DNA of 64,000 bases from Escherichia phage saus132, in the sequence record NC_047884.1. One strand, written 5' to 3'. The notes below the pieces were generated by a model, which was given only the letters and a program-made list of their open reading frames with translations, was not told the DNA's origin and made no database searches. A program made the translations under genes and the position numbers. Below are positions 22,473-50,164 of this stretch, in pieces; position 1 is the first letter of the stretch, and each line of letters starts with the position of its first letter.

Positions 22473-23072
22473 TTACACTTCTCCATGTTCTTCTGGATGC
22501 GGGGCTTGAGCTTTACTACACTGCTCTTTACGATAATTCGCCAAAATTTCAATACGCTTATTGATTTCTTTGCTGTTGAGATAGATATTCTTATTCTCTT
22601 TTACCATGTCCTCGATTTCATCGACAGAGAAGAACGGAAAGTAAATATCTAGCATCATATCTTCTACAAACTGGTTGTAGGATTCATAGGCTTTCTTGAT
22701 TTCTTGACCTTTCTCGCAGAATCCGCCAGAGAACGTATGTCCCATAAGCGTAGCATGTGGATGTACAACCCAACCGTGGCAAGATAGGAAGATTGTGCAG
22801 TAAGCAGAAGCACTAGGACCGAGCAGGTGTCCAATAACCGTTCCACGACAGTTAGCGATTAGGTTAGATAGCTGTGCAGCAGTATCAACATAACCACCAG
22901 GCCCATTAATCATCAGATTAATTTCATCATCTTCACCAGCCTGCATCAGTATCATTGATAGATCACGATACTCATCCGGTGAGCCTAACTCTTCGTCAAA
23001 GAAAAAGGTATACTCATTAGATTGGCGAACAGTGTGAAATAGGTTAGTCTTTTCTTCTTTCTTATTAGTCAT
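22473..23072 (-). CDS. ClpP-family serine peptidase
   Basis: 199 aa; INGPGGYV and GPSASAY align with ClpP INxPGG and active-site Ser region. Confidence 0.55.
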   Translation of the reverse strand: MTNKKEEKTNLFHTVRQSNEYTFFFDEELGSPDEYRDLSMILMQAGEDDEINLMINGPGGYVDTAAQLSNLIANCRGTVIGHLLGPSASAYCTIFLSCHGWVVHPHATLMGHTFSGGFCEKGQEIKKAYESYNQFVEDMMLDIYFPFFSVDEIEDMVKENKNIYLNSKEINKRIEILANYRKEQCSKAQAPHPEEHGEV

Positions 23073-23084
23073 AGTGATCCTTAA

Positions 23085-23837
23085 TTATCCAACTAGTGGT
23101 TCTAGCTCTAAGTCACAGAAGTGGTACACATCGGTACGAAGTGCATCAAGTCCGTTGAAGGTATTCTCAAATTTATGAGAAATGTATTTTTCAGGAATAC
23201 CGCTTTCAGACGGATGATCTGTCTCGATGCGATACTTATTAGTAATACCAGATTCAACCTTAATAAGTATGGAATCCATATCTAGAGTATTGGATTCCAT
23301 GATTAGCTCTCCCTCATTTGGAAAACGCACATCGGTAACGATTGCGACGTCTGGGTCGTCTTTATCGATGGATTGCTCCAGAATTATGAGCCAAATGCGT
23401 TCATGCACCAGCTGCCTTCCTAACTCAGTACCTACAAGCTGTAGCATTTTTCTTGGGGAGATAAATACGCTATACAGCGCATCATCAGCTTGCCCAATTA
23501 ACTGCTGAGGATCAAGGTATTTTCCTTCAAAAATAGGCCAAACGTACGAGAAGTCCTCAAACTTATCGATACCATACTTAAACCATACGTCTCTAGCTCG
23601 CTCCAGCTGAGATTGTGTGACCGTAAACCATTGGTCAATCTCCTTTCCCCTGCGCTCTCCCAGAAACTCTGGAGTTACCCCGAGGATTACGGATGCAAGT
23701 TCGTAAACGGGTTTAGCAAAACTGTAACGACGGGATAAACACGTTGGGAACGTGTCATTACACCAGTCAATCATTAATTCTGCAACGGTATCTTTTCCCG
23801 CACCAGCCTCACCATGTAAACCGACTAATACTGACAT
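23085..23837 (-). CDS. dnk: deoxynucleoside monophosphate kinase
   Basis: 250 aa; Walker A GEAGAGKDT near N-terminus. Confidence 0.55.
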   Translation of the reverse strand: MSVLVGLHGEAGAGKDTVAELMIDWCNDTFPTCLSRRYSFAKPVYELASVILGVTPEFLGERRGKEIDQWFTVTQSQLERARDVWFKYGIDKFEDFSYVWPIFEGKYLDPQQLIGQADDALYSVFISPRKMLQLVGTELGRQLVHERIWLIILEQSIDKDDPDVAIVTDVRFPNEGELIMESNTLDMDSILIKVESGITNKYRIETDHPSESGIPEKYISHKFENTFNGLDALRTDVYHFCDLELEPLVG

Positions 23838-24190
23838 TAATCTTTCCTATTTGTAATGGGTGGATAGTAAACTAAGCAACGTTTTTCTTGTAAATCTTGA
23901 CGATAGAAGCAAACCATACCAGTCAGTCGTGAAATGTAAGAGTAAACTGCTTCCTCGCATTTTGCTTTTGCATTCCAATCTTTGTAAGGTACAACAACTA
24001 CTACGCCATCTTCACCATTTGTAGCTAATTTATTTTCGAATTTGAAATCAAAACTACACGGCTGAAGTCCTTTAGGCCAATCTACATGAGCTTGCTTTAA
24101 CTCATGGGATGGCTCCGGTTTTATTTCTTCTGCACAGCCTGTGATTGTGATTGCGGCTGCAAGCAGTACTCCAAGTTTCCAGTTAAACAC
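23837..24190 (-). CDS. lipoprotein (o-spanin-like)
   Basis: signal peptide with lipobox ITGC; 117 aa; 5' end overlaps the 3' end of upstream ORF in another frame. Confidence 0.4.
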   Translation of the reverse strand: MFNWKLGVLLAAAITITGCAEEIKPEPSHELKQAHVDWPKGLQPCSFDFKFENKLATNGEDGVVVVVPYKDWNAKAKCEEAVYSYISRLTGMVCFYRQDLQEKRCLVYYPPITNRKD

Positions 24191-24564
24191 GCTAATCTTT
24201 CCTCGAACTCTTTATTCTGCTTTTTAGCAATTAATGTTACCAATCCAGGCTTTGCAGCGATAATATCTTGACGACTAAGAGCTTTATCTAACTGCTTAAT
24301 CTTTTTGTCTAGATCTGCTTGCGAAATATTATTCATTGTGAAATACTGATTCATTCGAGTCTCACGAAGTTCACTCTCAGCTTTCACCTTATTAAGGGAG
24401 GTTTCTAGAGAAGAGATTTTTTTAGTAGCTACCGCAAGATCTCCCGCTAAAGTCTCCACTTTATCTACTAAGTGATAAGCACCGAATCCGATACCTATCG
24501 CAAGACCAGCTCCCAGGATATACCACTTACCTTGCCATAGAGAACTAATAAAGTTTTTTATCAT
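24121..24564 (-). CDS. membrane-anchored coiled-coil protein (i-spanin-like)
   Basis: 147 aa; N-terminal TM then helical region; overlaps the lipoprotein ORF. Confidence 0.4.
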   Translation of the reverse strand: MIKNFISSLWQGKWYILGAGLAIGIGFGAYHLVDKVETLAGDLAVATKKISSLETSLNKVKAESELRETRMNQYFTMNNISQADLDKKIKQLDKALSRQDIIAAKPGLVTLIAKKQNKEFEERLACLTGNLEYCLQPQSQSQAVQKK

Positions 24565-25241
24565 CTTTTCATATTCCTGAATGACGTAACCGTATCAAAT
24601 CCATGTGCTGCTAGGCGGTCTTTATCAGAAATGGTAATAATATCTGGTTCTCCTGTTCCAAGCACGCCCCAGATATATTGTTCAATTCTCTGGTGTAATC
24701 GATATAGGTTGCTTTCAATTTCCTGCCACGGAATACCTGATAGGTGTAGACGCGGATTAGTTATAACCTTGAAGTATTTATTGTTATCTTTATCATTTGG
24801 AACTAATGAATCTAGAACTGCTAACGGTACTCTTAGCTCAGATAAGGCTTCTTTAGCTTTCGGGGTAACTTCATCTTGCCATGATAAGATAGACTCTTTT
24901 GGCTTCCCTCTATTTATATCTAGTAGAGAAAATCCCGTTGACCATCCATTCTCTTTCAAAACTTCTAATGCTTTGTCTAGGTTGAAAGTTTTTACTTGGG
25001 TATCCAATACATCAATATGGTACATCCAGTAAATCTCTCCTGCTAGGAAAAACGGTAGAATTTTAAAGTAGCCTTTCTTTTCACCAACACGAGCAATCAT
25101 ACGTTCTTGCATAATCATGTAGTTGCCATCATCTGGAGCCTTTATTATTAGCTCTTCAGTTTTACGCTCCCAAGCACGATCGGGGTCAAACAAGCTGTTC
25201 TGCAAATCATATACATCTGCCCATTTACTAATAATTCTCAT
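24561..25241 (-). CDS. hypothetical protein
   Basis: 226-aa ORF with promoter leader and RBS. Confidence 0.5.
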   Translation of the reverse strand: MRIISKWADVYDLQNSLFDPDRAWERKTEELIIKAPDDGNYMIMQERMIARVGEKKGYFKILPFFLAGEIYWMYHIDVLDTQVKTFNLDKALEVLKENGWSTGFSLLDINRGKPKESILSWQDEVTPKAKEALSELRVPLAVLDSLVPNDKDNNKYFKVITNPRLHLSGIPWQEIESNLYRLHQRIEQYIWGVLGTGEPDIITISDKDRLAAHGFDTVTSFRNMKR

Positions 25242-25393
25242 ATTTAATCCTCTTGCCTCAATCTATAAACATATTATATAATACTTGTGGCATCTGAGCA
25301 ACTGAAATTTTATTACAAAAAATAGCCCAGTCGCAAAATTGCAGGCTGGGCTTTGTCATTATTATTCTTGCTAGGAGGTGATTATCATCACTC

Positions 25394-25735
25394 TTATTTA
25401 CTTAATTCTCTAGCACGACGTAGCGATCCAGCGGTTCTCCATAGTTTAATGTCGTCAATAACTTCTTTATAGGGCGCAATAGTAAGACCTAGCGGTCCTG
25501 CTACCAACAGTCCAAAGAAACCAATTACACGCATGTAGAGCAAGCATTCTTTGGGAGTCATTGACTGGACAGCCTGCCTTTCCTCATCACTGTCGAACTC
25601 GTATTCTTGATCGTCTAAACGTAGGTACTTAATAAACCATTCAGCAGAATATTCATCCAGATGACGAATAACTGCAATAGCATAGCCTAAACCAATAATA
25701 AACCATGCTGCTACAATGAATAAAATAAAGCTCAT
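25394..25735 (-). CDS. membrane protein
   Basis: 113 aa, two to three TM segments. Confidence 0.45.
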   Translation of the reverse strand: MSFILFIVAAWFIIGLGYAIAVIRHLDEYSAEWFIKYLRLDDQEYEFDSDEERQAVQSMTPKECLLYMRVIGFFGLLVAGPLGLTIAPYKEVIDDIKLWRTAGSLRRARELSK

Positions 25736-25851
25736 GATATCTCCAGTTAAAGTTTAGGTCCGCGACCAACTCACCACTTACCGCACTAAGGGGCACGACT
25801 CCCTTATCCGTAACAGTTGCAGGTGACGCAACTCGGTCCTACGCGAGTTCT

Positions 25852-26136
25852 TTACTTGCTCTGCATTTCAGCACGGAATTTTTTCATCTTACGAGTTTTA
25901 CGGAAGAAGAAATAAGTAGCTACTGGCCCGAACAAGGTGTCCATAATAAGCATACCTGACATAATGAATTTGAACATCTTTTCATCGTCAAATCCTGCTA
26001 ATTCTGGTGGACGATATTTGTTTATAACATAAAGAATAACATCTTTATTTTTAGAGATATACAGATCATCAATCAGACTGTAAATCGCGACAACTGCACC
26101 AATAACAAACCACAAAGCAAATGGAGAGATAATCAT
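25852..26136 (-). CDS. small membrane protein
   Basis: 94 aa. Confidence 0.45.
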   Translation of the reverse strand: MIISPFALWFVIGAVVAIYSLIDDLYISKNKDVILYVINKYRPPELAGFDDEKMFKFIMSGMLIMDTLFGPVATYFFFRKTRKMKKFRAEMQSK

Positions 26137-26429
26137 TTAAGATCCTTTTCGTCAATTAGAATAGTAACAAACAATGGTATACAACCTGGGCACAAATCTT
26201 TACCAAACTTTTCCATTACATCCCAAAGTGGTAAGGTAATCATACCATTTTTAACTCTAGGATCTATATACTCAGCTATTCGTTTATCCGCGAATGTTAT
26301 TGCACTAGAAGTTTCTTCGTACTGTTCTGCATAGTTAGTCCAGAACTTAATATGTTCCTGTTTGAGGAAGCCTAGTACAGCATCAGTTGCTGGAATCTGT
26401 ACTAGACTGTTGAGATTTAGCTCTTTCAC
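26133..26429 (-). CDS. hypothetical protein
   Basis: 98-aa ORF. Confidence 0.45.
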   Translation of the reverse strand: MKELNLNSLVQIPATDAVLGFLKQEHIKFWTNYAEQYEETSSAITFADKRIAEYIDPRVKNGMITLPLWDVMEKFGKDLCPGCIPLFVTILIDEKDLK

Positions 26430-26802
26430 GTTCTGCTCTCCGACGTTTGCGTTCTTTCATCATGTAAGCTGCTACAACTTCATGATAGTAGTCATTAATG
26501 TTATCTTCTGGCAAGAAATGTTTAATTGTTTCTAGCTGACAGATAACACGGTAAAGATGTTTATTTGGTAGACATAGTTTCATGCCCATAACAAATCCAG
26601 AGAAGCCTGGAACACTGAACATGGGTTGGGCTTCTACGGTACCCTCGGGATTGATACTAAGTTCAATCGAGATACCCATTTTCATGCTATAAAGCTGACA
26701 ACCTTCACCATTACCGAATTTTGACCAAACAGTGAAATCCTCATCGATTTGATCTTGGATTTCTTCGACTGCATGTTTAATTCTAGGGTCTAAATTACTC
26801 AT
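26383..26802 (-). CDS. hypothetical protein
   Basis: start trimmed to in-frame ATG with AAGGTG RBS; track start 26880. Confidence 0.45.
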   Translation of the reverse strand: MSNLDPRIKHAVEEIQDQIDEDFTVWSKFGNGEGCQLYSMKMGISIELSINPEGTVEAQPMFSVPGFSGFVMGMKLCLPNKHLYRVICQLETIKHFLPEDNINDYYHEVVAAYMMKERKRRRAERERAKSQQSSTDSSN

Positions 26803-27094
26803 CTTCACCTTCAAAGCCGCAGTCATAACGGCAAGTAAAAGAATCAGAACTATTAGTACGTTGAGTAGTGATTTCACCACGTTTACTAACAGTAATAGCC
26901 GGAGTAGAGAAGTTTTTATTAGTATATATTTCTACTTTGCCATTACGTTCTTTTACATCACGTACTTTACCATATTCGGTGGTAATGCCATTCTGCTGAA
27001 CTTTAACATTACCATTTTTCATAGAAACTTTGGTAGATGCCAGAGAACCGAAACTAACTGCTGAGATTACTAGAGCAATAATAAACTTATTCAT
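26795..27094 (-). CDS. secreted/periplasmic protein
   Basis: signal-peptide-like N-terminus MNKFIIALVISAVSFGSLAS; start trimmed. Confidence 0.45.
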   Translation of the reverse strand: MNKFIIALVISAVSFGSLASTKVSMKNGNVKVQQNGITTEYGKVRDVKERNGKVEIYTNKNFSTPAITVSKRGEITTQRTNSSDSFTCRYDCGFEGEDE

Positions 27095-27368
27095 CTTCAT
27101 CGTCCTCTTTACAGTCACGGCATACATCATAATCATTGAAAGAATGTTCGTGAGCTTCACACCACCAAGAACAAGAATCGCACAAGAAAATTTCTGTTTT
27201 CTCTATTGCCTGTCCAAGCAGTTCGTCTGCTTCATCTTCGGTGATTTTCAAACTACAAACATCAGCAACACGTTTAACAATCATTTTACCTGCTTCATGA
27301 TAAGACATACAAGTCCCAACAACATCATGCTCAAGTACGTGAACAGCACAGTCTAGGCGAGTTTTCAT
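27087..27368 (-). CDS. small Cys-rich protein
   Basis: 93 aa; CDSCSWWC and CRDC motifs; promoter leader upstream. Confidence 0.45.
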   Translation of the reverse strand: MKTRLDCAVHVLEHDVVGTCMSYHEAGKMIVKRVADVCSLKITEDEADELLGQAIEKTEIFLCDSCSWWCEAHEHSFNDYDVCRDCKEDDEDE

Positions 27369-27398
27369 TTCAAAGCCCTCTCATCAATTTATATAAAT

Positions 27399-27427
27399 AT
27401 TATATCAAAAGGAGAGGGTTTTAGCAA
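27399..27427 (-). promoter_or_regulatory. T5-type early promoter
   Basis: TATAAT 27399-27404, TTGCTA 27422-27427, 17-bp spacer. Confidence 0.55.
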
Positions 27428-27444
27428 ATGAATTATTTACGAAA

Positions 27445-27798
27445 TTAGTCGTAGCACCACCATAACCCACGCTTACGTAGGTCATGATCGCAGTTGTAGT
27501 CGTAATTTTCCGGATCTTGCATAACACGATGCAGTTCCATACGGTTTCCTTGACGAACCATTTTGTTAGAGTGCCACTTGACGGCTTGGCTGATAGAATC
27601 CCAGTTGTAACCATCCTTCTTCTCATATTTAATGATATCGTCTTGTAATTCCTTTTCAACTTCTTCTCTAGTATACGGGACTGCTGGCTCCTTCAAAGCA
27701 AAGAAACGACGATTGTACCCAAGAGTAAAGTTGAATTTAGAACGATGTGCATCACGCCAGTGACGATTTCCCGATTGTTTACGATATGTACGGCTCAT
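27445..27798 (-). CDS. hypothetical protein
   Basis: 117-aa ORF. Confidence 0.5.
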   Translation of the reverse strand: MSRTYRKQSGNRHWRDAHRSKFNFTLGYNRRFFALKEPAVPYTREEVEKELQDDIIKYEKKDGYNWDSISQAVKWHSNKMVRQGNRMELHRVMQDPENYDYNCDHDLRKRGLWWCYD

Positions 27799-27857
27799 AA
27801 TACCTCCATTAAGTCTGTTAAAGTAACTTAATGTGGTCTAACTTCAAAATATAACAT

Positions 27858-28043
27858 TTAGTAGTCTCCGTTATCGTTGTATACTACCCCACTGCTAGGG
27901 AGTTCTTCTGCTGTCACATTCTCGAATTCTATAGAACTTCTATGATTTCTAGCCAGTTCGATTGCTTCTTCCGCAGTTTCCGCAACAACAATAGCTGTAC
28001 CACCTAACCACAGGCCGCTATAGTTCACTTTAAAAATTTTCAT
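27858..28043 (-). CDS. hypothetical small protein
   Basis: 61-aa ORF. Confidence 0.4.
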   Translation of the reverse strand: MKIFKVNYSGLWLGGTAIVVAETAEEAIELARNHRSSIEFENVTAEELPSSGVVYNDNGDY

Positions 28044-28107
28044 TTCGAAAATCCTATATACAAGAAAACCCCAGACTACGTATTCAATAGCTGGGGTTTA
28101 TTATTAA

Positions 28108-28407
28108 TTAGATAATTTCGACAATATCCTGAGTTACAAAACCGTCGAATTCATCAGAGATACCACCTGTAAAGGTGATGCCCATAATCATTGCATCCAT
28201 CTTTTTAATCTCCGAGATTTTCATGCCTGCTTTACTATTCTTATAGTATTTGCGAGGATTCCCACACATCCAACAAGAACAGATGCAAGGAGTGGTAGTG
28301 ATAATGCCTAACCTCTTAGGGCTTTCTTCATGTGGGAAGACTGTCCAATACTTCTTGCGATTGTTTTTCACACGTTGCCGGTGATGGCGTCTTAATGCTC
28401 GATCCAC
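28108..28407 (-). CDS. small radical-SAM-like protein (NrdG-like glycyl-radical activase candidate)
   Basis: CICSCWMC gives C-x3-C-x2-C; GITFTGG resembles the NrdG ISLSGG region; only 99 aa, so tentative. Confidence 0.4.
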   Translation of the reverse strand: MDRALRRHHRQRVKNNRKKYWTVFPHEESPKRLGIITTTPCICSCWMCGNPRKYYKNSKAGMKISEIKKMDAMIMGITFTGGISDEFDGFVTQDIVEII

Positions 28408-28488
28408 ACATTTCTCCTAAAACTTGGGAGATAAATGGAGTTTGCTCGACTACCTTGCGTAGTTGGGAGAAATCGTATCCAAACCCCA

Positions 28489-28857
28489 TTATATCGCCTG
28501 AGTAAATGTACGACTAATAACGTCGTTCTGTTGTTCACGCGTCAATGCGTTAAATCGAACAGCATAGCCAGAGACACGGATGGTCAACTGAGGATATTTT
28601 TCAGGATGTTTCTGTGCATCCAAAAGCTGATCACGGCTTAACACATTGACATTTAGGTGCTGACCACCCTCGACTTGAGGAACCACTTCTACATCTACAA
28701 TGCGGAAGGCCTCAGGGTCAAAATGAGGTGTGATACCCTCTAGATCTTCAACTAGAACCTTTTGTTTAAGTTCACCATCTTTAGAATATAGCTGAATGAT
28801 CTGGTTATCATGAACAAGGTTAATTACGCCAGACTTAAGACTTTGATATGCTTTCAT
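28489..28857 (-). CDS. grcA: autonomous glycyl radical cofactor GrcA/YfiD homolog
   Basis: 122 aa; C-terminal [32 protein letters not shown] matches recalled E. coli GrcA including the RVSGY glycyl-radical motif. Confidence 0.75.
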
Positions 28858-29040
28858 TAGATCTCCCTGATGTTAGAATTTGGCTCAGCTTTTTGTTAAC
28901 CCAGAAGCAAGATAAAAACTGGGAGGCAGGCTGTTTATTAAGTGAATACCCGATAATCGCTCGTAGTCCGGCTTGTGGATTGATAGTCCCATTCAGTTTA
29001 ATAAACACAGAGATCTGGCACAAAGGCCTGATCTTATCTT

Positions 29041-29116
29041 TGGTAGTTAGTAGTGGAGTTGAACCACTGTAGTCGCTCCGTATGAAGGAGGTGCATAACC
29101 ACTCTGCCAACTAACT
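29041..29116 (-). tRNA. tRNA-Met-type (anticodon CAU; could be Met, fMet or Ile2)
   Basis: 76 nt with encoded CCA; acceptor AGTTAGT/ACTAACT; T-arm AGTGG-TTCAACT-CCACT; anticodon loop TTCATAC. Confidence 0.6.
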
Positions 29117-29122
29117 ATAATT

Positions 29123-29198
29123 TGGTACTCCGACTTGGGATCGAACCAAGATTTGACGATTATCGGTCGCCTGTTCTAACCTGTTGAACTATCAGAGC
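29123..29198 (-). tRNA. tRNA-Ile (anticodon GAU), non-canonical C33
   Basis: encoded CCA; T-arm CTTGG-TTCGATC-CCAAG; anticodon loop CCGATAA; acceptor with G-U pairs. Confidence 0.5.
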
Positions 29199-29199
29199 A

Positions 29200-29493
29200 T
29201 TACATCATTTCATCCAAGTAAGAAGTATACTGGTATTTAGCTTCCCCAGTTTTATCTACTTCGACTTCTGTTCTAGGTACTTTTCGTACCAGACCGTGAA
29301 TCATCTTGTACTGAATAGACTTAGATGGTTCGTGATCTTTTGGAAAGACTTGTTTAACCGTTACTACTTTGAAGCCTTCACGAGGTGTTAATACAACAAC
29401 TTGATCACCTTCTTTAATTTTCCAGGACTCAGGAAATTCATAAGTGTAGCGTTGACCACCAGTTTGGAACACGACAGAAAGATAACGTTTCAT
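29200..29493 (-). CDS. hypothetical protein
   Basis: 97-aa ORF; promoter leader with GAGAGGG RBS. Confidence 0.5.
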   Translation of the reverse strand: MKRYLSVVFQTGGQRYTYEFPESWKIKEGDQVVVLTPREGFKVVTVKQVFPKDHEPSKSIQYKMIHGLVRKVPRTEVEVDKTGEAKYQYTSYLDEMM

Positions 29494-29567
29494 TTGGTTT
29501 CCCTCTCATTAATTTATATAAATATTATAACAAGAAATAAGAGAGAAGGCAAATGAATTTTTAAATT

Positions 29568-29642
29568 TGGTGCTCCCACCAGGAGTCGAACCCAGTTCAG
29601 ATGCTTACAAGGCAACTGCATCGCCAGCAATGCTTTAGGAGC
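29568..29642 (-). tRNA. tRNA-Thr (anticodon UGU)
   Basis: encoded CCA; acceptor GCTCCTA/TGGGAGC; anticodon loop CTTGTAA; T-loop TTCGACT. Confidence 0.6.
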
Positions 29643-29652
29643 AATAAACCCG

Positions 29653-29817
29653 TCATTTCAACGGGATTTCTTTTTCAAATACAGGAGACTTATCAGACAT
29701 TACTGTCATCGCCAACTGCTGAAGAAACTCGAAGGATAGTGCTAGGCGTTCGTCACCAAGCTCAATCTCTACACGTTTCTTTTGTTTGTCAACCTTTAGT
29801 TTCAGGTTATCAGCCAT
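29653..29817 (-). CDS. hypothetical small protein (54 aa)
   Basis: ATG ORF between tRNA genes; below track size cutoff. Confidence 0.3.
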   Translation of the reverse strand: MADNLKLKVDKQKKRVEIELGDERLALSFEFLQQLAMTVMSDKSPVFEKEIPLK

Positions 29818-30031
29818 CTTCGGATTCTAGTTGCTCGGCTACTGCTAGCCAGTCTGGTAAAAGAAACTTAGTACGAAACTCTTCATAAGGTTCTTCTGGA
29901 TAAAAGCTAAAATTTGCTTTCTCATCATTCAAGATAACAGAGCCGTCAGTTTGTTCGTATGCTAGGTATGTTTCTCCAATAACAATAACTCGTTTATTGT
30001 TACTTTTATCACGAAACTCAAAAACGTGCAT
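29810..30031 (-). CDS. hypothetical protein
   Basis: 73-aa ORF. Confidence 0.45.
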   Translation of the reverse strand: MHVFEFRDKSNNKRVIVIGETYLAYEQTDGSVILNDEKANFSFYPEEPYEEFRTKFLLPDWLAVAEQLESEDG

Positions 30032-30048
30032 AAATGTTTCCTTAAAGT

Positions 30049-30124
30049 TGGAGCGGCTAGAGGGAATCGAACCCTACTCAGCGGGGCTTGGAAGGCCTGC
30101 GGCACAACCCGTGTGCTTAACCGC
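30049..30124 (-). tRNA. tRNA-like gene, isotype uncertain (possibly Gly UCC); weak anticodon stem
   Basis: 76 nt; good acceptor and T-arm (TTCGATT) with CCA; only a 3-bp anticodon stem around loop CTTCCAA. Confidence 0.35.
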
Positions 30125-30132
30125 TTATTGTT

Positions 30133-33509: not shown

Positions 33510-33511
33510 AT

Positions 33512-41623: not shown

Positions 41624-42568
41624 TTACTTATTACGCATATCCATAATCATCTGGCCATCATAACCAGTACCTACAACAGTCTGAGGAACGCCACCCTGAT
41701 ATTTTTCAGCGCGTTTCATATCAACTTCCAGCTGTTTCCAGCGAATCATCTCTGGAGTGATGGTACGCTGCAGAGCGGTGTTAGCTTCAGCTTCTTTCTT
41801 AGCCGCATACAGTTTAGCATCTGCGTCACGTTCGTTAGCTACTGCCATATTTTCACGAGCAGAACGATCAGCCTCAGCTTGCTTAACTTTCTGCTGTGCT
41901 TCTTGTTCAACACGAGCTAGTTCAGCTTTTGCAGCGTTAACTTGTTCTTCACGAACTTTGGTGTTTTGTACCTGTTCCATGATTACCGGTGGCAGAGTAA
42001 TATCCTGAAGGAATACTTGCTTAACGGTGTAGCCATAAGGACGCGCATACTCTTCTACTTCTTGCTGAATAGCGGTTTGCAGTTGAGCCTGAATCTTAGC
42101 GTCGAACAGATCTTGTGCTTTTGGTACAGACTTACCAAACTCACGAATCGTAGACAGCATCTTCTCTTCAACGTACTTGTTCAGAGCTTGATCCTGAGTA
42201 CCTGCGTTAACACGGTTCATAGGAGCTTTAGCACCATCAAACTGCAACATAACGGTAATGTCAACTGTAGACTTAAACTTATCCTGGCTAGGAACCTGAA
42301 GTTTATCCAGTTTCATAGAAATATCTTTCGTACTAAAAGTATCAAAAGAGGCGAATGGGTTGACAATATGGAACCCCGGCAATACAGGATTAGGACTAAC
42401 TTTACCCAGGAAAGTCTGAGTTTTAACCGTACCGTCCTGAACAACTGTATAGGAATTGAGAGCCAGAATAAGAGCGCCAAGACCAACTACAGCACCAACA
42501 CCCCAACGTTTAATAGTACGAATTACTTTTTGATCGGAAGTCAGTTCTTTAGTGTTTTTAGTAAACAT
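41624..42568 (-). CDS. SPFH/band-7 (prohibitin/HflC-like) membrane protein
   Basis: 314 aa; N-terminal TM; FLQDITLPPVIMEQV motif and long coiled coil. Confidence 0.55.
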   Translation of the reverse strand: MFTKNTKELTSDQKVIRTIKRWGVGAVVGLGALILALNSYTVVQDGTVKTQTFLGKVSPNPVLPGFHIVNPFASFDTFSTKDISMKLDKLQVPSQDKFKSTVDITVMLQFDGAKAPMNRVNAGTQDQALNKYVEEKMLSTIREFGKSVPKAQDLFDAKIQAQLQTAIQQEVEEYARPYGYTVKQVFLQDITLPPVIMEQVQNTKVREEQVNAAKAELARVEQEAQQKVKQAEADRSARENMAVANERDADAKLYAAKKEAEANTALQRTITPEMIRWKQLEVDMKRAEKYQGGVPQTVVGTGYDGQMIMDMRNK

Positions 42569-42579
42569 ATATTTCCTTA

Positions 42580-42780
42580 TTATTTAGAAGAGTTAGCTAC
42601 TACAGTTACTTTAGTTGCAGAAATAAACAGGCTAGCATCCACAGCAAATTCAGGAGCTTTGATATCTCCGTTATGAAATATGACTATACCGGAGACTACT
42701 TCAAATGCTAGCGCTGTAACATCGGTGGTATTTACTTGTGAATGTTCACCTACTACTTTTACTATATATCGTGTTTTCAC
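42580..42780 (-). CDS. hypothetical small protein
   Basis: 66 aa, GTG start with AGGAAA RBS, downstream of SPFH gene. Confidence 0.4.
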   Translation of the reverse strand: MKTRYIVKVVGEHSQVNTTDVTALAFEVVSGIVIFHNGDIKAPEFAVDASLFISATKVTVVANSSK

Positions 42781-42806
42781 TTTATTTTCCTAGCAGTTAA
42801 TAAAAT

Positions 42807-42881
42807 TGGCCGAGGTGACAGGATTCGAACCTGCATAAAGGAATTTAGAAGACTCCTGCCTATCCCTTAGACTACACCCCG
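42807..42881 (-). tRNA. tRNA-Arg (anticodon UCU)
   Basis: T-arm GCAGG-TTCGAAT-CCTGT; anticodon arm GGAGT-CTTCTAA-ATTCC; CCA encoded. Confidence 0.6.
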
Positions 42882-43777
42882 TTTAGGTATTTTTAAGAAC
42901 TCTTATAAAAGCTCTTAAAGATACCCGACGGTAGGTAGGGTCAGCCCCCTCAGATTAAGCTCTGCAGCCCTTCCGTCAGACAATATCTTCCAGTTTAAGT
43001 CAGGGTGACTTTGTGGTTATGTTCTCCGTATGTGAAGAACTCGGTTAGGCTTAGGTCATGACTCCCAGCCTACTGCTGCCGCTCAACAGGAATTATCGCG
43101 AATTACCTGTACTATTGGGCACCATTAGTGACATCTCTCATGTCAGCGTTTCCCACTCTCATATTCACGCGGTCTGTTAGAATCGCACCTCCGATTTTCG
43201 ATGCGAAGCTGGATGCCTAGTCTCAGGTTAAACGGGGCACACACTAGGCAGTGATCCCGAGTTCCGAGTTTGGTTGAGGCCGTCAGGTTTCCTCGTGGTT
43301 TAGCTGTTTCGATTCTAACCTAATACTGATCAGGTGGCGTACCTCCTGAACTGTCATAGTATGTACTCCAGCAGCGAATGCTTATCCGGTATAAGCCCGA
43401 GTTATCTGATTCTTTCCGACCGCAGGATTCGAACCTGCATCTTCCACCAGTTACGGTTTGATATTACCGTTTATACTAGGACGGCAGTGTTATCACATAA
43501 GTCAGTTCGACACCCCACTAACATAAACTAGAGAAGAGTTTACGAGATTTCGGGACAGCTCCCGAGTTTTCCGCAGATTTTCAGTTCCCTATCAATAGCA
43601 ATAAGCGTTAGCTCGTAGCCTCTCTCAGAGTACTTACTAGTCTCCAACTCACCGACTCTATTCAGTGGAATAGCTATCCTAGTAGGAATCACTAAACTCA
43701 CTCAGCGTAATCGGCTCGCTGTTCTCTAATTTATGAATCTATTATACAGAATTTTGAGGCGTTTAGCAAATCAATTT

Positions 43778-44221
43778 TTAATTAAATTCGCCAGCAACCT
43801 GAGCAGCAATGCCACCGTCGTAACGACCAGGAAACTCTTCCTTAATCGCTTTCATCAGCATACCTTTTGTAATCCCAGGGTTCAACTTAACTAATTCTGC
43901 AAAGTATTTGCGAATCTCAGAATCAGATAACTGAGGCGGCAGATACTGTTGTAGCCATTTGTTCAGTATATACTCATACTGAGCAGACTGCAAGCTATAA
44001 TTATCAAGGTCTTGACCGTGAAGTTTAGCTTTCGTCTGATTAATGCTTTTCAGTTGAGCTTTTAGATAAGATACAAACTGTTCAGAAGTAATGAAGTCTT
44101 TATCAACACGCTGAAGATCTCCGATTATGGTCTGGTAGCTTTTAGCTACTTCTTTATCAGAACCATCAACCTTAGATTCCTGCAAAGCCCTACGCAAAAC
44201 ATCTAGAATATTCTCTTCCAT
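43778..44221 (-). CDS. GatB/YqeY-domain-like protein
   Basis: 147 aa; C-terminal MKAIKEEFPGRYDGGIAAQV resembles YqeY tail. Confidence 0.4.
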   Translation of the reverse strand: MEENILDVLRRALQESKVDGSDKEVAKSYQTIIGDLQRVDKDFITSEQFVSYLKAQLKSINQTKAKLHGQDLDNYSLQSAQYEYILNKWLQQYLPPQLSDSEIRKYFAELVKLNPGITKGMLMKAIKEEFPGRYDGGIAAQVAGEFN

Positions 44222-44391
44222 TATTTAATTCCCAGTGCTTGGTTAAAAGATTGTTCTGTCATAACTGCCGAGACTTTAGCGAAATCAAACTTCTTAGGGT
44301 TTGTAGTAATTTCAGCAACGTTAGTAGTTTTAACTGTTTTCGTAGTACGGATACCACGAGTATTAACACCAATAATTACAACTGATTTCAT
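44221..44391 (-). CDS. hypothetical small protein (56 aa)
   Basis: ATG ORF; TAATG overlap with downstream gene. Confidence 0.3.
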   Translation of the reverse strand: MKSVVIIGVNTRGIRTTKTVKTTNVAEITTNPKKFDFAKVSAVMTEQSFNQALGIK

Positions 44392-44459
44392 ATTTCGCTT
44401 CCTCTCATTAATTTATGAAAGTATTATACAGAAATTTAAGGCTTTAAGCAATCGAATTT

Positions 44460-44909
44460 TTAAGTTTTCTTAACCACAGGCTTGTAGAATGTATGGCCTT
44501 GAATCTTCGTTGTTTTCTTAAACTTCTTTGTCCAGTACGGTTTATCTTTACCACTATGGAAGTATAACGCTCCATGTGTTGGATCTTGTGGTAAATCAAC
44601 GTAGTATATCACTCTAGCTAAATTCTTAGCAACTTGCCAAGCCTCATCGGTTTTATCAACTTTTGGTCTCCTGGCCACCCAAGAGAACTGGTTAGACTGA
44701 TATACTACTTTACAGTAAGAATCAGGAAAAGTACCAGAGTTAACACGGTTTTTAGTAACCTGTGCAACTGCGATCATTCCTTTAGTGCCCTCACCTCGTG
44801 CTTCGAAGTAGATATTTTTTGCAATGCAATCAATCTGCTTTGAGTCGTAGGTCGCATGACTATTGAAGCTATAGGTTAGGGCAGCTATTAAAAGCAAAGC
44901 TGCCTTCAT
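44460..44909 (-). CDS. cell-wall hydrolase (SleB/Hydrolase_2-like) with signal peptide
   Basis: NIYFEARGE...GMIAVAQVTKNRV motif; start set to ATG after GGAG RBS. Confidence 0.5.
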   Translation of the reverse strand: MKAALLLIAALTYSFNSHATYDSKQIDCIAKNIYFEARGEGTKGMIAVAQVTKNRVNSGTFPDSYCKVVYQSNQFSWVARRPKVDKTDEAWQVAKNLARVIYYVDLPQDPTHGALYFHSGKDKPYWTKKFKKTTKIQGHTFYKPVVKKT

Positions 44910-44914
44910 TTTAT

Positions 44915-45232
44915 TTACTCCGGCCAATCGTACTCAATACGATTAGGGCTTTCTTGATACCCTTCGTCTAAGAGATCATTACGCATGGTCTCTTTAGCTA
45001 CTGGGTTCGAGGTTACTAGTACCACTTTCTTGGGTCTCTGACCAAATTCTAGGAGTAAACGAAGAATTTGATAACCTTCCATACCATCTACAGCCAGATC
45101 GTTATCCATATAAACGAAATGACCTGTGGTATCGGTTTTATTCAGAAACTCAACAGCGGCTTCGGGGGTTCGAATGATAATGTCCATTCCATGAAGGTTA
45201 CGCACATCATCAATCAGAATATGAAAAATCAT
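44915..45232 (-). CDS. hypothetical protein
   Basis: 105-aa ORF. Confidence 0.45.
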   Translation of the reverse strand: MIFHILIDDVRNLHGMDIIIRTPEAAVEFLNKTDTTGHFVYMDNDLAVDGMEGYQILRLLLEFGQRPKKVVLVTSNPVAKETMRNDLLDEGYQESPNRIEYDWPE

Positions 45233-45675
45233 AATAGCCTCGTCTCATCAATTTAAAAATATATTATACAGAAAACTAAACTAATTAGCAAATACATTTT
45301 TAAATTGAGAGACTAGTAAACCGATAAACAGCCTAGAGGCGCCACAGGCCATATCTTATGAGCCATGTACCTTTGATCTAGGGTTTGAATCATCAACGAA
45401 TACTTTGCATCTTTTAGCTTTAGAAGGTTAGAAGTTTGAGTGCTTTTAACTTTTCAGCTTTCATACTTGAGCGTTGATCTTTGAAGTTGTGTTGGTACTA
45501 CCAACGACCTTTTGTTTTTACGTGTCAGATTAAATGTCTGATGTAATAAACATAATCTCCAATAGATTATACTTTATAGTATGGTCAGCGGTCTTATTTA
45601 ACCTCGTATTTCAACCGCTGCTGCGAGGTAAGATGCTTGGGCTTTCGTCTACCGATTTACTAGTCTTTTAAATTA

Positions 45676-46314
45676 TTACTCTACTTCGATAAAAGTAGAG
45701 GCGTTGGACTCAGACAGAACAAAGTCAACGTTAGTTGCAAAGTCCTGGTATTCTTCGTCGTGTTGCTTGATCAGCTTTTCCAGCTCCAGCGGATCGATCA
45801 GGAACGGAGTGTTCTTGAGTTCCAGCAGGTTAAGCTGCATCTTAACTTCATCCTCGGAAGTCTTCTTGTCGCGGGTAGCCATGGTATCCTGCAAACGCTC
45901 ATACTTGGCATCAAACTGAGCCTTCTGAGTGTTAAACTTAACAGTAGCAGCATGGAACTGCTTACGCATGTTAGCCAGCAACTGAGCCTTGAGTTCCATA
46001 GAACGCTTAGCTTCGATTGCTTCCGCAACAGTCATAGAGCGAGAGCCGATCTCTACAACAGTTTCAGCATTGCTCTTGATCAGCGCAGCTTTCAGACGAT
46101 CACGCTGGGACATCATATCCAGCAGAGACTGGAAATCAGTCTTAATACGAGTAGACAGAGCATCTACTTCGATTGCAGCGCCAACTACAACTTGGTTCTT
46201 GTCCTTACCTTCACCAACAGCAATCAAAAGCTGTTGTTCAGTAGCTTTACGGATTTTAGCTTCCAGAGACTTGATAGTTGCCAGAGCACGAGTTTTAGAG
46301 ATACGAGTAGTCAT
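45676..46314 (-). CDS. coiled-coil protein, GC-rich gene
   Basis: 212 aa; AAGGAAG RBS; codon usage markedly more GC-rich than neighbours. Confidence 0.5.
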   Translation of the reverse strand: MTTRISKTRALATIKSLEAKIRKATEQQLLIAVGEGKDKNQVVVGAAIEVDALSTRIKTDFQSLLDMMSQRDRLKAALIKSNAETVVEIGSRSMTVAEAIEAKRSMELKAQLLANMRKQFHAATVKFNTQKAQFDAKYERLQDTMATRDKKTSEDEVKMQLNLLELKNTPFLIDPLELEKLIKQHDEEYQDFATNVDFVLSESNASTFIEVE

Positions 46315-46367
46315 TATTTGCTTCCTTATATGAAGTTTGAGATTTGAATTTGTTTTAAAATGGTCTA

Positions 46368-46550
46368 TTACAGACCGATTGCCAGCAGAGTGCGCAGAAC
46401 AGTATCAGAACTGTTATCAATATTCGGATTAGCGCGATTCAGCACGTTAAAGATTTTCTGGATGCCGGACTGACGCTCAGCCATACGACGCAGACCCAGG
46501 TTACGTTTTGCTACTTTACCATTTTTACGGACGTTTTTAGATACTGGCAT
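46368..46550 (-). CDS. hypothetical small basic protein
   Basis: 60-aa ORF. Confidence 0.35.
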   Translation of the reverse strand: MPVSKNVRKNGKVAKRNLGLRRMAERQSGIQKIFNVLNRANPNIDNSSDTVLRTLLAIGL

Positions 46551-46620
46551 AATTATTTTCCTTTTGTTGTTCTCTCAAATTTATGAATATATTATACAGA
46601 ATTTTGGAGCTGAAAGCAAA

Positions 46621-47322
46621 TCAAATTTTGATTTTTTCGATCATGATGGCTACACAATAACTTTCAACTAAAGCATCGAATGCTGGATCATGCTTCACGG
46701 GATAGATTCCATAACGAATGGTGTCCATCTTTTCCATTTTAGCTTTTGCCCAGCTAGCACCTTCGGCTTCTAGATCTTTATAACTATAACCAGCTTGCAT
46801 CCACTGATTACGGAAAGATCGAACGTTACCTAAGTTCCAGAATTTCCACGGAACTATTTCTTCATGGGTTCCGGCATGGAACGTATTTGCAGAGTAGATA
46901 GTCATATCAAACTCTGGGCCATTGCCGTAATACAGAGCATTATCTCCTAGAGACAATTCCATAATGTTCTGAGCCATAGAGAAGGCAGCGTAATTAGAAC
47001 CTACATCATTAGTGCAGTGATGCTTACCATCACGGAAGGCAATCAGTTTCGGATTGCGATTAGTCAATGCTTCTACTATATGGCAAGCTGAAGTACTCAG
47101 TCTAGCTTGTTCCATCCAGAATGCAATAGTAGAGGCAGTTACCTTAGCACCCGCATTAAGCTGATCCTGAACGTCTAGAGTAACGAAAACCAGATCAGGA
47201 TCTTTATCAATTCCGTGCATCGCTACAAAAGCGAAAGAAGGCATTGCGATATGAGTAGTACCGCAATTTCCTGGAGTACCTAGAGATTCAATGTCCAGCA
47301 TACCAAAGGGCTTGAATTTCAT
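46621..47322 (-). CDS. exonuclease (DexA-like)
   Basis: 233 aa; LDIESLG and KFWNLGNVR motifs resemble T4 DexA. Confidence 0.4.
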   Translation of the reverse strand: MKFKPFGMLDIESLGTPGNCGTTHIAMPSFAFVAMHGIDKDPDLVFVTLDVQDQLNAGAKVTASTIAFWMEQARLSTSACHIVEALTNRNPKLIAFRDGKHHCTNDVGSNYAAFSMAQNIMELSLGDNALYYGNGPEFDMTIYSANTFHAGTHEEIVPWKFWNLGNVRSFRNQWMQAGYSYKDLEAEGASWAKAKMEKMDTIRYGIYPVKHDPAFDALVESYCVAIMIEKIKI

Positions 47323-47352
47323 AATTATGTCCTTTATTGTTGTAGAAAACTA

Positions 47353-47565
47353 TTAAAGAGCTGTCTCTTTAATAGACTCCCACTGTTTGGGGTCTTTCAG
47401 AGGAATTTCCTCTTCTTCAAACAGGTCTGTTCCATTTTCGTTAACATCCCAGTTTTCTTCCATGATTTCTTCTAGAAGCTCATGTTTAGAAAGACGAGTG
47501 TAGTCTCTAGCAGACTTATGAGTGCTAGCACGGTTAAAATCATTCTTTGCAACGAAGTTACGCAT
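47353..47565 (-). CDS. hypothetical acidic protein
   Basis: 70-aa ORF. Confidence 0.4.
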   Translation of the reverse strand: MRNFVAKNDFNRASTHKSARDYTRLSKHELLEEIMEENWDVNENGTDLFEEEEIPLKDPKQWESIKETAL

Positions 47566-47570
47566 AGTTT

Positions 47571-47596
47571 CTCCAAATAAGAGGGGCTTTCGCCCC
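47571..47596 (-). terminator. putative intrinsic terminator (GGGGCTTTCGCCCC hairpin)
   Basis: hairpin recurs near 47861 and 53728. Confidence 0.45.
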
Positions 47597-47606
47597 CTGA
47601 TTTAAA

Positions 47607-47822
47607 TTACTTGCCCAGTAGTTTAAGGATATTTTCCTTAATAGTTTGAGCAGATTTTTCACTCTTATTGGTTTCAGCCAGTTTCAGAGCGAGTTCTTCC
47701 TGCTGTTTCTGAATATCAGCAGCAGTTTTCTGGTCAGCTTCAATACGAGCTTGAAGTTCATCAGTAATAGTGGTAAAGGAAGCAACGATTTCAGTAACGG
47801 AACGTGGTTTCTTAGAGAACAT
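47607..47822 (-). CDS. hypothetical coiled-coil protein
   Basis: 71-aa ORF. Confidence 0.4.
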   Translation of the reverse strand: MFSKKPRSVTEIVASFTTITDELQARIEADQKTAADIQKQQEELALKLAETNKSEKSAQTIKENILKLLGK

Positions 47823-47860
47823 AAAAATATCCTTAATTAGTCAGAGAAAGAGTTAATATA

Positions 47861-47876
47861 TGGGGCTTTCGCCCCA
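47861..47876 (-). terminator. putative intrinsic terminator (GGGGCTTTCGCCCC hairpin)
   Basis: same hairpin core. Confidence 0.45.
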
Positions 47877-47883
47877 TCAATCA

Positions 47884-48399
47884 TTACTTCGCTTTACGCT
47901 TACGAGCAGGTTTAGCGGATTTACGATCAGAAGCACCAGTAAACTTAATACCGATACCATAGCACAGAGCGCGAACGTTGTCACGGCTGTACTCTACACC
48001 GAAGATATTCGGTTTAACGGAGCCAAACTGTCCACGCGATTCACGCATTACGTCAGCCATTGGCTTACGCTTCTGATTGACTGCTTTTTCGTAGTCTTTC
48101 AGAGCCATACCGTTGCGGGCGAACATTTCAGCACCGCCGTTAAAGCTCAGAGTTACCGGTACAGACTTATGACCTTCACCCTTGATGAACACAACCTGCT
48201 TAGCAGTTGCGCGAGTAGAGTTCTTGGCCTTCGGCTTCTGGCGAACCGGAGCCGGAGACTTCAGGGCAGTCTGAGCCTGAGCATCAGTAGGATGCTTACG
48301 CAGATGACGTTCCAGACGAGCCTTACGATTGGCTTCGGTCTGAGCGAAAGTTTTAACTGCCGGAGCTGCCTGAGTTTTTGCGTTTTTCTGCTTAGCCAT
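47884..48399 (-). CDS. basic Lys/Ala-rich protein (putative nucleic-acid binding), GC-rich gene
   Basis: 171 aa with K/R/A-rich termini; elevated GC. Confidence 0.5.
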   Translation of the reverse strand: MAKQKNAKTQAAPAVKTFAQTEANRKARLERHLRKHPTDAQAQTALKSPAPVRQKPKAKNSTRATAKQVVFIKGEGHKSVPVTLSFNGGAEMFARNGMALKDYEKAVNQKRKPMADVMRESRGQFGSVKPNIFGVEYSRDNVRALCYGIGIKFTGASDRKSAKPARKRKAK

Positions 48400-48482
48400 T
48401 ATTTGTTTTCCTTTTTGTTGATCAATTTATGAGATATATTATACGAAATTTTGAAGCGTTTAGCAAATGAATTTTTTAAAAA

Positions 48483-48761
48483 TTATCTGCCAATCATCTT
48501 AGCTTGTTCCTCACTGGAAACGTACTGATAACCACCCTTGTTATACGCAGGAGCAGTACACAGTTTCTTGCGCTCAATTTCTTCTTGAGCTTTGCGTTCC
48601 CTTTCGGCTAATTCTTCGTCTAGGTAAACTAGACGTTGCTCCGGAGGTGGTGGAAGCCTAGTTTCTGGCTCACCAATATTTGCCTTTCTGATCTGACGCG
48701 GAGGTTGTGCGCGTTTTCTCAAAGGTTTAAATCCTAATGAATTTGAGTTGTAAATTCGCAT
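48483..48761 (-). CDS. hypothetical protein
   Basis: 92-aa ORF. Confidence 0.4.
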   Translation of the reverse strand: MRIYNSNSLGFKPLRKRAQPPRQIRKANIGEPETRLPPPPEQRLVYLDEELAERERKAQEEIERKKLCTAPAYNKGGYQYVSSEEQAKMIGR

Positions 48762-48837
48762 AAAGCCCTCCTCACTTTCAATACGAATATTATACTAAAT
48801 TCGAGGGCTTTAAGCAAGTGAATTTTTAATTTATTTA

Positions 48838-49326
48838 TTACATCTCAGCAAGTTCTTGCTCAGTAATTACAGTATTGCATAGAGCATCAACTTCTTCGTT
48901 ACCACGAATACCTGAGTGACCTTTAACCTTAACAAAGGTTGGGTTAGTATCATGGAAATTAATATACTGTTGAGTTAGTTTAAACGCTTCTTGCCAGAGT
49001 TCTAGATTAAGAGGAGTTTCACCATCTCCTTTCTTCCATCCTTTCTTCTGCCAAGACCACATCCAGCTTTCCATACCATTTTTGCAGTAAGCAGAATCAG
49101 TGTATATAATTACTGGACGATTATCTTTCTTAGTAGACCAACGAAGAACTTCAACAATTGCAGTGAGTTCCATTTCATTGTTAGTAGTTTTAGGACTGAA
49201 GCCAGATTTAGAGCCAATACGATCATCATTATCATTATAGACAACGAATCCCCACGCACCTAAACCAGGATTGCCTTTACATGCACCATCTGTATATATG
49301 TGGAAAACCGACATTATTTGCTCCAA
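48838..49326 (-). CDS. rnh: ribonuclease H
   Basis: HIYTDGACKGNPG and YTDSAY motifs of RNase HI; real start may be the second ATG. Confidence 0.7.
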   Translation of the reverse strand: MEQIMSVFHIYTDGACKGNPGLGAWGFVVYNDNDDRIGSKSGFSPKTTNNEMELTAIVEVLRWSTKKDNRPVIIYTDSAYCKNGMESWMWSWQKKGWKKGDGETPLNLELWQEAFKLTQQYINFHDTNPTFVKVKGHSGIRGNEEVDALCNTVITEQELAEM

Positions 49327-49583
49327 TCAATTTCAAGCCAAAAACCTTCACGCTGTTCATACTTAGCTTCCACAACATAACCTAGTTTGCTAAGTTTTTG
49401 CATAACGCTATTTCTAGCGTTTTCTGAGTATTCAGTCAATCCCTGGATGTGACAGTTAAATTCTTTATCTTTGATAGCTTTGTCAATCTCTACGGCAATA
49501 AGTGATTCTAAATCAAGTACTTCCTTTTTAATACTAGCAATAGTATTTTGTTTTGCTTCTAAAGCAGATAAAAGAATAGACAT
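49314..49583 (-). CDS. hypothetical protein
   Basis: 89-aa ORF. Confidence 0.4.
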   Translation of the reverse strand: MSILLSALEAKQNTIASIKKEVLDLESLIAVEIDKAIKDKEFNCHIQGLTEYSENARNSVMQKLSKLGYVVEAKYEQREGFWLEIDWSK

Positions 49584-49585
49584 AT

Positions 49586-50164
49586 TTATTCTCCAATTAC
49601 TAAAACATCATGTTGAGAAGATACACCACACATATAATCTGCACAATGCGTAAAAGCCAGATCAATGATTTCAAATATATCATCTACATCTAAATCTGTG
49701 GCTCGACAATCCGCAATAGCTAAACCTGTACGAATACTGGAAAGTACATCTTCTCCTCCACAGCCTACACCGGCATATTCAACTTCTAGGATAGAAGCAT
49801 TAGATTGGAAAATAAAGATTCTTCCTTTGTAGAGCATAATAAATTGTCCCAGATTAGGTTCAGCATATTTTTCATTTTTCTTTTCGCCAAAATCTTTCTG
49901 GTTAAACATATCACGTAATTTAGGTACTATTTCCGTATATAAATATTTATCATCGGAAATATCTGCTAAACGTGGTGGTATAGTAAAGCTATGCTCTAGT
50001 AATTGTCCCATGTAGAAGGAACTAGTGTATCCGAAGTACAAATCATCGGAGATTTTGAATACTTTCGGATTTTTAACCAGCAGTTTCGTATAGCCATTAG
50101 AACCCATACGATCACCAGCTAAGTATACTTTATCTTTATATTTAAATGCTACTATGGCTGTCAT
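49586..50164 (-). CDS. HslV/proteasome-like Ntn-hydrolase
   Basis: N-terminal MTAIVAFKYKDKVYLAGD resembles HslV MTTIVSVRRNGHVVIAGD; GVGCGGED. Confidence 0.4.
   Translation of the reverse strand: MTAIVAFKYKDKVYLAGDRMGSNGYTKLLVKNPKVFKISDDLYFGYTSSFYMGQLLEHSFTIPPRLADISDDKYLYTEIVPKLRDMFNQKDFGEKKNEKYAEPNLGQFIMLYKGRIFIFQSNASILEVEYAGVGCGGEDVLSSIRTGLAIADCRATDLDVDDIFEIIDLAFTHCADYMCGVSSQHDVLVIGE

Follow-up and report, generated by a model that had tools for sequence, protein, structure and literature searches.

Docking of the peptidase ClpP onto its unfoldases needs both a loop at the N terminus and a patch of hydrophobic residues that receives the IGF/LGF loops (in E. coli Y60/Y62/F82 in mature numbering, Y74/Y76/F96 in the precursor) (PMC4416901), and in the HslU-dependent HslV helix 2 is followed by a short linker (PMC5777263). 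Relatives without such a partner, or without sites to bind one, have been described in the two fold families: the proteasome homologue BPH has no known unfoldase and carries a long loop after helix 2 (PMC5777263), the phage-borne proteasome homologues PPH, AAH, and CPH likewise occur without AAA+ genes alongside (Fuchs, Alva, Lupas 2021, PMC8665760), and the Ser-His-Asn heptamer of Listeria monocytogenes ClpP1 (LmClpP1), which has no chaperone-binding sites, is inactive until it is stacked on ClpP2 (PMC9257651). Here we analyze two genes of Escherichia phage saus132 (NC_047884.1), one ClpP-like and one proteasome-like, which lie in a window of 64,000 nucleotides (bases 1–64000) at the left end of this Epseptimavirus genome (Demerecviridae; full length 121,986 bp). 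An earlier note, made from the sequence alone, had singled out these two open reading frames (ORFs), which are indeed present on the minus strand where it placed them (table 1), and had suggested that their products borrow host ClpX/ClpA or HslU.

On balance, we favor the view that the two early genes are unrelated and were inherited independently, that each comes from a divergent, phage-specific branch of the chambered proteases, and that their products would act as accessory, dispensable peptidases without an unfolding ATPase. One would be a ClpP-fold serine peptidase of the T5.042/phrog_1827 clade and the other a proteasome-fold threonine peptidase whose nucleophile is bared by removal of the initiator Met. 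Both proteins most likely keep peptidase chemistry, and both most likely work without an unfolding ATPase of either phage or host, with peptides, proteins that lack structure, or a handful of specific targets as plausible substrates in early infection.

The ClpP-like assignment made in the earlier note is borne out by broad profiles and by the modeled structure. The protein exceeds the Pfam cut-off for CLP_protease (PF00574; 31.1 bits against 20.2, E = 2.6e-7), matches phrog_1827, an "ATP-dependent protease" family, at E = 2e-88, and yields an AlphaFold model (predicted local distance difference test [pLDDT] score 81.5) that Foldseek superimposes on many ClpP structures with a template modeling (TM) score of ~0.65 and a root-mean-square deviation of 2.5 Å over ~160 residues. 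With E. coli ClpP (MEROPS S14) it shares the alpha/beta fold and its handle helix (residues 123–144 of the model), the Ser-His pair (Ser89 and His112 align with the catalytic residues), and the oxyanion Gly (Gly60); Ser89, His112, and Gly60 are unchanged in 40 of 40 aligned relatives. It differs from E. coli ClpP in several ways: the phage protein is ~15–20% identical to cellular ClpPs, has Asn162 where Asp171 completes the E. coli triad, has neither the conserved axial N-terminal loop nor the aromatic patch, ends in a long C-terminal helix, comes from a genome without a ClpX or ClpA gene, and scores 15.2 bits against a cut-off of 308.6 with the NCBIfam ClpP equivalog model (TIGR00493). Models of the phage clade in BFVD match it better (TM ~0.8, the C-terminal helix included), and the clade is discrete: with the family profile no member falls below 121 bits, and no genuine ClpP rises above 57. 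In public records the gene already bears the name "ATP-dependent Clp protease proteolytic subunit." Most relatives of the protein have Asp as the third triad residue; Asn is confined to the Tequintavirus/Epseptimavirus clade (T5.042 included), PAK_P1 has Glu, and Barba phages have Gln. A 92%-identical protein is filed at NCBI under "Brucella melitensis"; the 115-kb contig that bears it is most likely that of a T5-like phage.

As far as alignment and model can tell, the features with which ClpP engages its unfoldases are absent from the phage protein. The three positions of the docking patch are occupied by Asn52, Met54, and Asn74 in the alignment to E. coli ClpP, and residues 1–19 are predicted to be disordered (pLDDT 42–60), with neither helix A nor a hairpin; across the relatives this N-terminal segment ranges from 1 to 50 residues and is unconserved. 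Two more positions, which we take from ADEP-ClpP structures to belong to the pocket, are polar as well: I90 is replaced by His82 (invariant in 16 aligned relatives) and L114 by His104 (13 of the 16). With neither the N-terminal loop nor the patch conserved, recruitment of host ClpX/ClpA by the ClpP-like protein is not supported by what the sequence holds.

The combination of a Ser-His-Asn triad and missing chaperone-binding sites is also that of Listeria ClpP1. This is a likeness and not evidence of the same behavior, and the two proteins differ in that ClpP1 is a cellular paralogue that depends on ClpP2 and in that most relatives of the phage protein keep the Asp. The likeness nevertheless allows for a different use of the host machinery, in which a heptamer of the ClpP-like protein would stack on a heptamer of host ClpP, as Listeria ClpP1 does on ClpP2, and alter or poison ClpXP/ClpAP from the far side. 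Both oddities of LmClpP1 (PMC9257651) and the handle helix speak for such stacking; we nevertheless regard it as highly improbable, in view of an identity of just 15–20% to cellular ClpPs, that of E. coli included, and of the Asp kept by most clade members, which infect other hosts.

The second protein was called HslV/proteasome-like in the earlier note, and the broader half of this name is the one that stands. Pfam Proteasome (PF00227) matches it over its full length (38.3 bits against a cut-off of 22.4), phrog_1040 matches too, under the name "peptidase HslV family," a label that some RefSeq records give to the gene, and its AlphaFold model (pLDDT 91) is matched by Foldseek to HslV, BPH, and beta subunits with a probability of 1.0. 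The first possible start codon is the beginning of the ORF, with a GAAGGA ribosome-binding site 8 nt upstream, and gives Met-Thr-Ala-Ile-Val, leaving no room for a propeptide. Methionine aminopeptidase would take off the Met and leave Thr1 bare, as happens in E. coli HslV, and Thr2, Asp18, and Lys34 of the ORF would then become Thr1, Asp17, and Lys33. A profile search of 1.84 billion representatives returned 6,681 relatives (cluster representatives), 821 of them at E ≤ 1e-30 and nearly all of ~180 amino acids (aa). The Met-Thr start recurs in 141 of the 148 best relatives, and Thr2, Asp18, Lys34, the oxyanion Gly45, Gly134, and Gly136 are invariant in all 149 of a diverse set, with position 135, that of proteasome Ser129, occupied by Cys in 86 relatives and by Ser in 52; profile alignment to solved structures backs these equivalences.

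It is the narrower label, HslV, that proved too specific. Like HslV (ClpQ), the phage protein has Thr1/Asp17/Lys33, a removable initiator Met, a length of ~180 aa, four flanking helices, and the database name. It differs from HslV in an identity of ~16%, in a Gly-Cys-Gly in place of Gly-Ser-Gly, in the absence of an hslU gene from the phage, and in its profile matches, which at E ≤ 1 do not include the NCBIfam HslV equivalog and comprise only weak proteasome beta matches (E = 0.02 and 0.11). Helix 2 (residues 71–89 of the model, in which the four flanking helices are all present) is separated from strand 7 by a loop of 18 residues (90–107; family mean 16), in a region where the sequence alignment to HslV is unreliable; HslV has there a short basic linker (Arg86/Arg89/Lys90). 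The best structural match is instead BPH (PDB 5OVS, 5OVT, 5OVU), at TM 0.71–0.72 as compared with 0.63–0.65 for HslV, and BPH shares with the phage protein the lack of a propeptide, the elongated pore loop, and the lack of a known partner unfoldase. It is unlike BPH in that the loop, QKDFGEKKNEKYAEPNLG, is of mixed charge (Lys/Glu) rather than strongly acidic, and in that the family is mainly viral.

The named members of this family come from phages and their contexts are phage-like; other members are scattered over bacterial genomes of many phyla and 64 IMG/VR contigs. In this, the family resembles PPH, AAH, and CPH, Group-I proteasome homologues that occur in tailed phages and sporadically in bacterial genomes, with no AAA+ gene alongside. 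Identity with PPH is excluded, as PPH is ~140 aa long and has no helix 2, against 192 aa with helix 2 here; the range of AAH (phages, Alphaproteobacteria, Actinobacteria, and Firmicutes) fits that of the proteasome-like family, a comparison by distribution only. We surveyed the neighbors of the gene over 2.5–10 kb around each of 92 loci (5 phage or metagenome, 23 bacterial, and 64 viral), and a gene similar to ClpX, HslU, or ClpA was found within that distance in none of the 92. With no match to the HslV model, a structure nearer to BPH, and no AAA+ neighbor in the survey, use of host HslU by the proteasome-like protein is unlikely. Aeromonas phage 2L372D carries two different proteasome-like genes in tandem (gp210 and gp211), one of 183 aa that belongs to the family studied here and another of 294 aa that has Thr1, Asp, Lys, Gly-Ser-Gly, and an acidic C-terminal extension.

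The earlier note had treated absent catalytic residues as grounds for giving up its proposal; this is half the case for the ClpP-like protein, where Asp has become Asn, and is not so for the proteasome-like protein. The same replacement, together with the Cys for the conserved Ser of Gly-Ser-Gly and the dispensability or loss of both genes in relatives, could be read as a sign that one protein, or each of them, no longer catalyzes anything and persists as a relic or scaffold. Against this, nucleophile and general base are invariant over deep divergence in both families, and Cys and Ser alternate at position 135 as would be expected of a functional hydroxyl or thiol; we consider inert proteins quite unlikely, and we infer that both would be active and would assemble into rings.

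The phage itself brings no recognizable unfoldase, which agrees with the earlier note and extends its observation to the whole genome. With the ClpX, ClpA, and HslU sequences of E. coli as queries, tblastn over the full 121,986 bp had as its sole match a 45-residue Walker-A region in a NadR-like gene, and there is no AAA+ unfoldase among the annotated genes of the whole genome; the PhoH-like ATPase at 56452–57204 is of the helicase type and no unfoldase. An absent AAA+ gene is what one would see if the two peptidases docked onto the ClpX/ClpA and HslU of the host and had them unfold host or defense proteins for degradation; the classical members of both fold families need an unfoldase, and the host genome carries ClpX, ClpA, and HslU. 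We consider this arrangement unlikely. The ClpP patch and N-terminal loop that it would use (PMC4416901) are not conserved; the NCBIfam equivalogs fail (15 bits against 309 for ClpP, no match for HslV), and E. coli ClpP and HslV as tblastn queries do not pick up the phage genes even at E = 10; and the proteasome-like protein stands nearer to the partner-less, long-looped BPH (PMC5777263). Moreover, because the phages that carry these families differ widely in their hosts, docking specific to a host would have had to re-evolve repeatedly.

What our search of the literature found on the function of either gene is the statement "function currently unknown" and one genome-wide knock-down score. 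In that dCas13d screen of T5, T5.042 was "Not Fit" (fitness -4.47, p = 0.90; PMC11879866 supplement), and T5.042 is on this ground dispensable on the laboratory host. The knock-down bears on yet another reading, that the ClpP-like protein serves as a protease in the virion or in morphogenesis and derives from ClpP-related prohead proteases. Phage head-maturation proteases (NF045542; phrog_1684, phrog_94) are of phage origin and are its closest profile matches outside its own PHROG: the best NCBIfam match is Clp_rel_HeadMat (NF045542), several head maturation protease PHROGs match (such as phrog_1684 at E = 1e-20), and the BF23 orthologue, whose function the authors of that study call unknown, was found in purified virions (PMC10644984). 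However, the NCBIfam score is below the cut-off (41.2 bits against 120), the gene is dispensable, as the absence of a fitness cost shows, and it sits in an early operon distant from the head module. A separate "capsid and scaffold protein" gene lies at 105478–106110 of the full genome, between the portal and major capsid genes, and counts against a morphogenetic role because that is the position expected of a prohead protease. BF23, too, has a prohead protease of its own (ORF164), and the virion signal of the orthologue is ~25-fold under that of this protease, in preparations where dihydrofolate reductase was present as well. A role in virions or their assembly is in our estimate very unlikely.

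The two genes are separate and independently inherited, and do not form one system. They are 27 kb apart in different operons, and the interval 22473–50164, which the earlier note gave as its span, is only the distance between unlinked genes and contains ~90 unrelated genes and 30 tRNAs. The window opens with the terminal repeat and its pre-early genes, and the early region follows. By Megablast, both gene regions are 100% identical to five "Bacteriophage T5-like" records, such as MF431738.1, at the same coordinates, and are matched by >400 further related T5-like genomes. T5, by contrast, has the ClpP-like gene and not the proteasome-like one, with rnh directly after thy, and tblastn over phage records found the ClpP-like family in 1,315 and the proteasome-like gene in 196; the 1,315 take in the T5-like group as well as phages that infect Vibrio, Pseudomonas, Rheinheimera, Klebsiella, and other hosts. 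Comparison of T5 (26892–27025) with window positions 49355–50188 suggests how the difference arose: because the promoter and the final 12 codons of the ORF of 89 aa downstream of the proteasome-like gene are still present in T5, that gene and the bulk of the small ORF seem to have been lost from T5 by deletion, rather than the gene having been gained by Epseptimavirus.

Both kinds of gene do co-occur in some unrelated large phages, for example 121Q, Alteromonas V22 (PMC7289586), and three of the 64 IMG/VR contigs, in which a true ClpP lies within 10 kb of the proteasome-like gene. In 121Q (genes 473–475), a ClpP-like gene stands two genes upstream of the proteasome-like gene. A direct link between the two genes of the window by way of 121Q was rejected: the 121Q ClpP-like protein has a signal peptide and no BLAST similarity to T5.042. 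In these phages, the two kinds of gene are often near PhoH, Sir2, and nucleotide-metabolism genes. A scan of the genes with PADLOC for a relation to defense systems gave no meaningful matches. It is conceivable, and in our view a long shot, that the pair amounts to a phage proteolysis toolkit, in which a viral "second ring" would cap a heptamer of host ClpP and thereby reprogram or disable ClpXP/ClpAP of the infected cell, and a BPH-type, ATP-independent chamber would remove particular host or defense proteins; the first element is suggested by the Ser-His-Asn triad and missing docking sites that the T5-clade protein shares with Listeria ClpP1, and the toolkit by the recurrence of both gene kinds in 121Q, Alteromonas V22, and the three IMG/VR contigs.

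Several considerations weigh against the reading we favor, of two peptidases that act on their own. By analogy with LmClpP1 (PMC9257651), the T5-clade ClpP-like enzyme might be inactive by itself; it may also contact host unfoldases in a noncanonical way despite the missing docking residues. The knock-down screen used one laboratory host, and a conditional role, for instance against a defense system, would escape it. Finally, the low level of the BF23 orthologue in purified virions (PMC10644984) is a hint of a different role.

Table 1. The two protease genes and adjoining features, in positions of the window.
Feature	Position	Strand	Details
ClpP-fold serine peptidase gene	22473..23072	-	199 aa; T5.042 orthologue, 88% identical; Ser89, His112, Asn162
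Intrinsic-terminator-like hairpin	22439..22464	-	11-bp stem and T run directly past the ClpP-like stop; T5 terminator annotated at the same place
dNMP kinase (dnk), same early operon	23085-23837	-	Context only
o-spanin lipoprotein, same early operon	23837-24190	-	Context only
i-spanin, same early operon	24121-24564	-	Context only
Proteasome-like N-terminal-nucleophile peptidase gene	49586..50164	-	192 aa; Thr2, Asp18, Lys34, Gly45, Gly134-Cys135-Gly136 (replacing Gly-Ser-Gly)
89-aa ORF, phrog_13270 (unknown function)	49314..49583	-	Starts 2 nt past the proteasome-like stop; overlaps the rnh start
Promoter region upstream of the proteasome-like gene	50189..50265	-	81% identical to an annotated T5 early promoter
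117-aa DUF3307 membrane protein	50263..50616	-	Between thyA and the promoter; absent from T5; neighbor, not a demonstrated partner

The ClpP-like gene is the final gene of an early operon that has the same order as in T5 (T5.047-like, i-spanin, o-spanin, dnk, clp), and past the strong terminator hairpin that closes it lies the promoter of the holin-endolysin pair. Its place between the spanins and this pair had suggested a role in lysis, which we rejected: a 320-aa homologue in a Vibrio phage does adjoin an endolysin, yet what it has in addition at the C terminus is an acidic, disordered tail and not a holin, and the homologues of PAK_P1 and the Barba phages lie outside any lysis context. The first gene of the operon, at 24561–25241 (minus strand), is the orthologue of T5.047, has no Pfam domain, and belongs to phrog_4243 (unknown function); T5.047 scored "Fit" in the knock-down screen of T5 (PMC11879866), a score that marks a gene as important to the phage.

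At the other locus, the T5 counterpart of the early promoter stands directly upstream of rnh, and the 89-aa ORF is probably cotranscribed with the proteasome-like gene. A conserved small partner ORF beside the gene was sought and rejected, as BLASTP detected no similarity between the small ORF that adjoins the gene here and those in this position in Erwinia phage KEY, Aeromonas phage 2L372D, and 121Q.

Elsewhere in the window, the gene at 41624–42568 (minus strand), recorded as a "hypothetical protein" and in T5 as the "lipoprotein" T5.080, encodes 314 aa with a clear domain of the SPFH/Band 7 (stomatin/HflK-like) type (E = 8e-20 in Pfam); T5-like phages and many T4-like ones have homologues. 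In cells, the partners of SPFH proteins are NfeD proteases, which have the ClpP fold, or FtsH. A pairing of the NfeD-stomatin type between this lipoprotein and the ClpP-like protein was considered and set aside: NfeD1b_N matches weakly, at 17 bits where the cut-off is 40, and the distribution of the SPFH gene, over T5-like and T4-like phages, is not that of the ClpP-like family. The gene at 46621–47322 (minus strand), annotated as a "metallopeptidase," is not a third protease; Pfam shows an Rv2179c-like 3'-5' exoribonuclease domain, and the T5 counterpart is annotated "exonuclease." The "hypothetical protein" at 59519–60205 (plus strand) combines a treble-clef zinc finger (DUF4379) with CapR-homology and T5orf172/MUG113 (GIY-YIG-like) domains. 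Small early ORFs at 12815–13066, 45676–46314, and 47607–47822 (minus strand) bear structural names ("capsid and scaffold protein," "tail fiber protein," and "tail length tape-measure protein") that seem to have been transferred by mistake in annotation.

Hundreds of sequenced virulent phages bear one or both of these genes, and whether such phages bring ATP-independent chambered peptidases of their own or plug into the proteolysis of the host bears on host takeover, on counter-defense, and on the evolution of the relatives of the proteasome. To these questions our contribution is modest: it argues against a borrowed host unfoldase, separates the two genes from one another, and flags what the T5-clade enzyme has in common with Listeria ClpP1.

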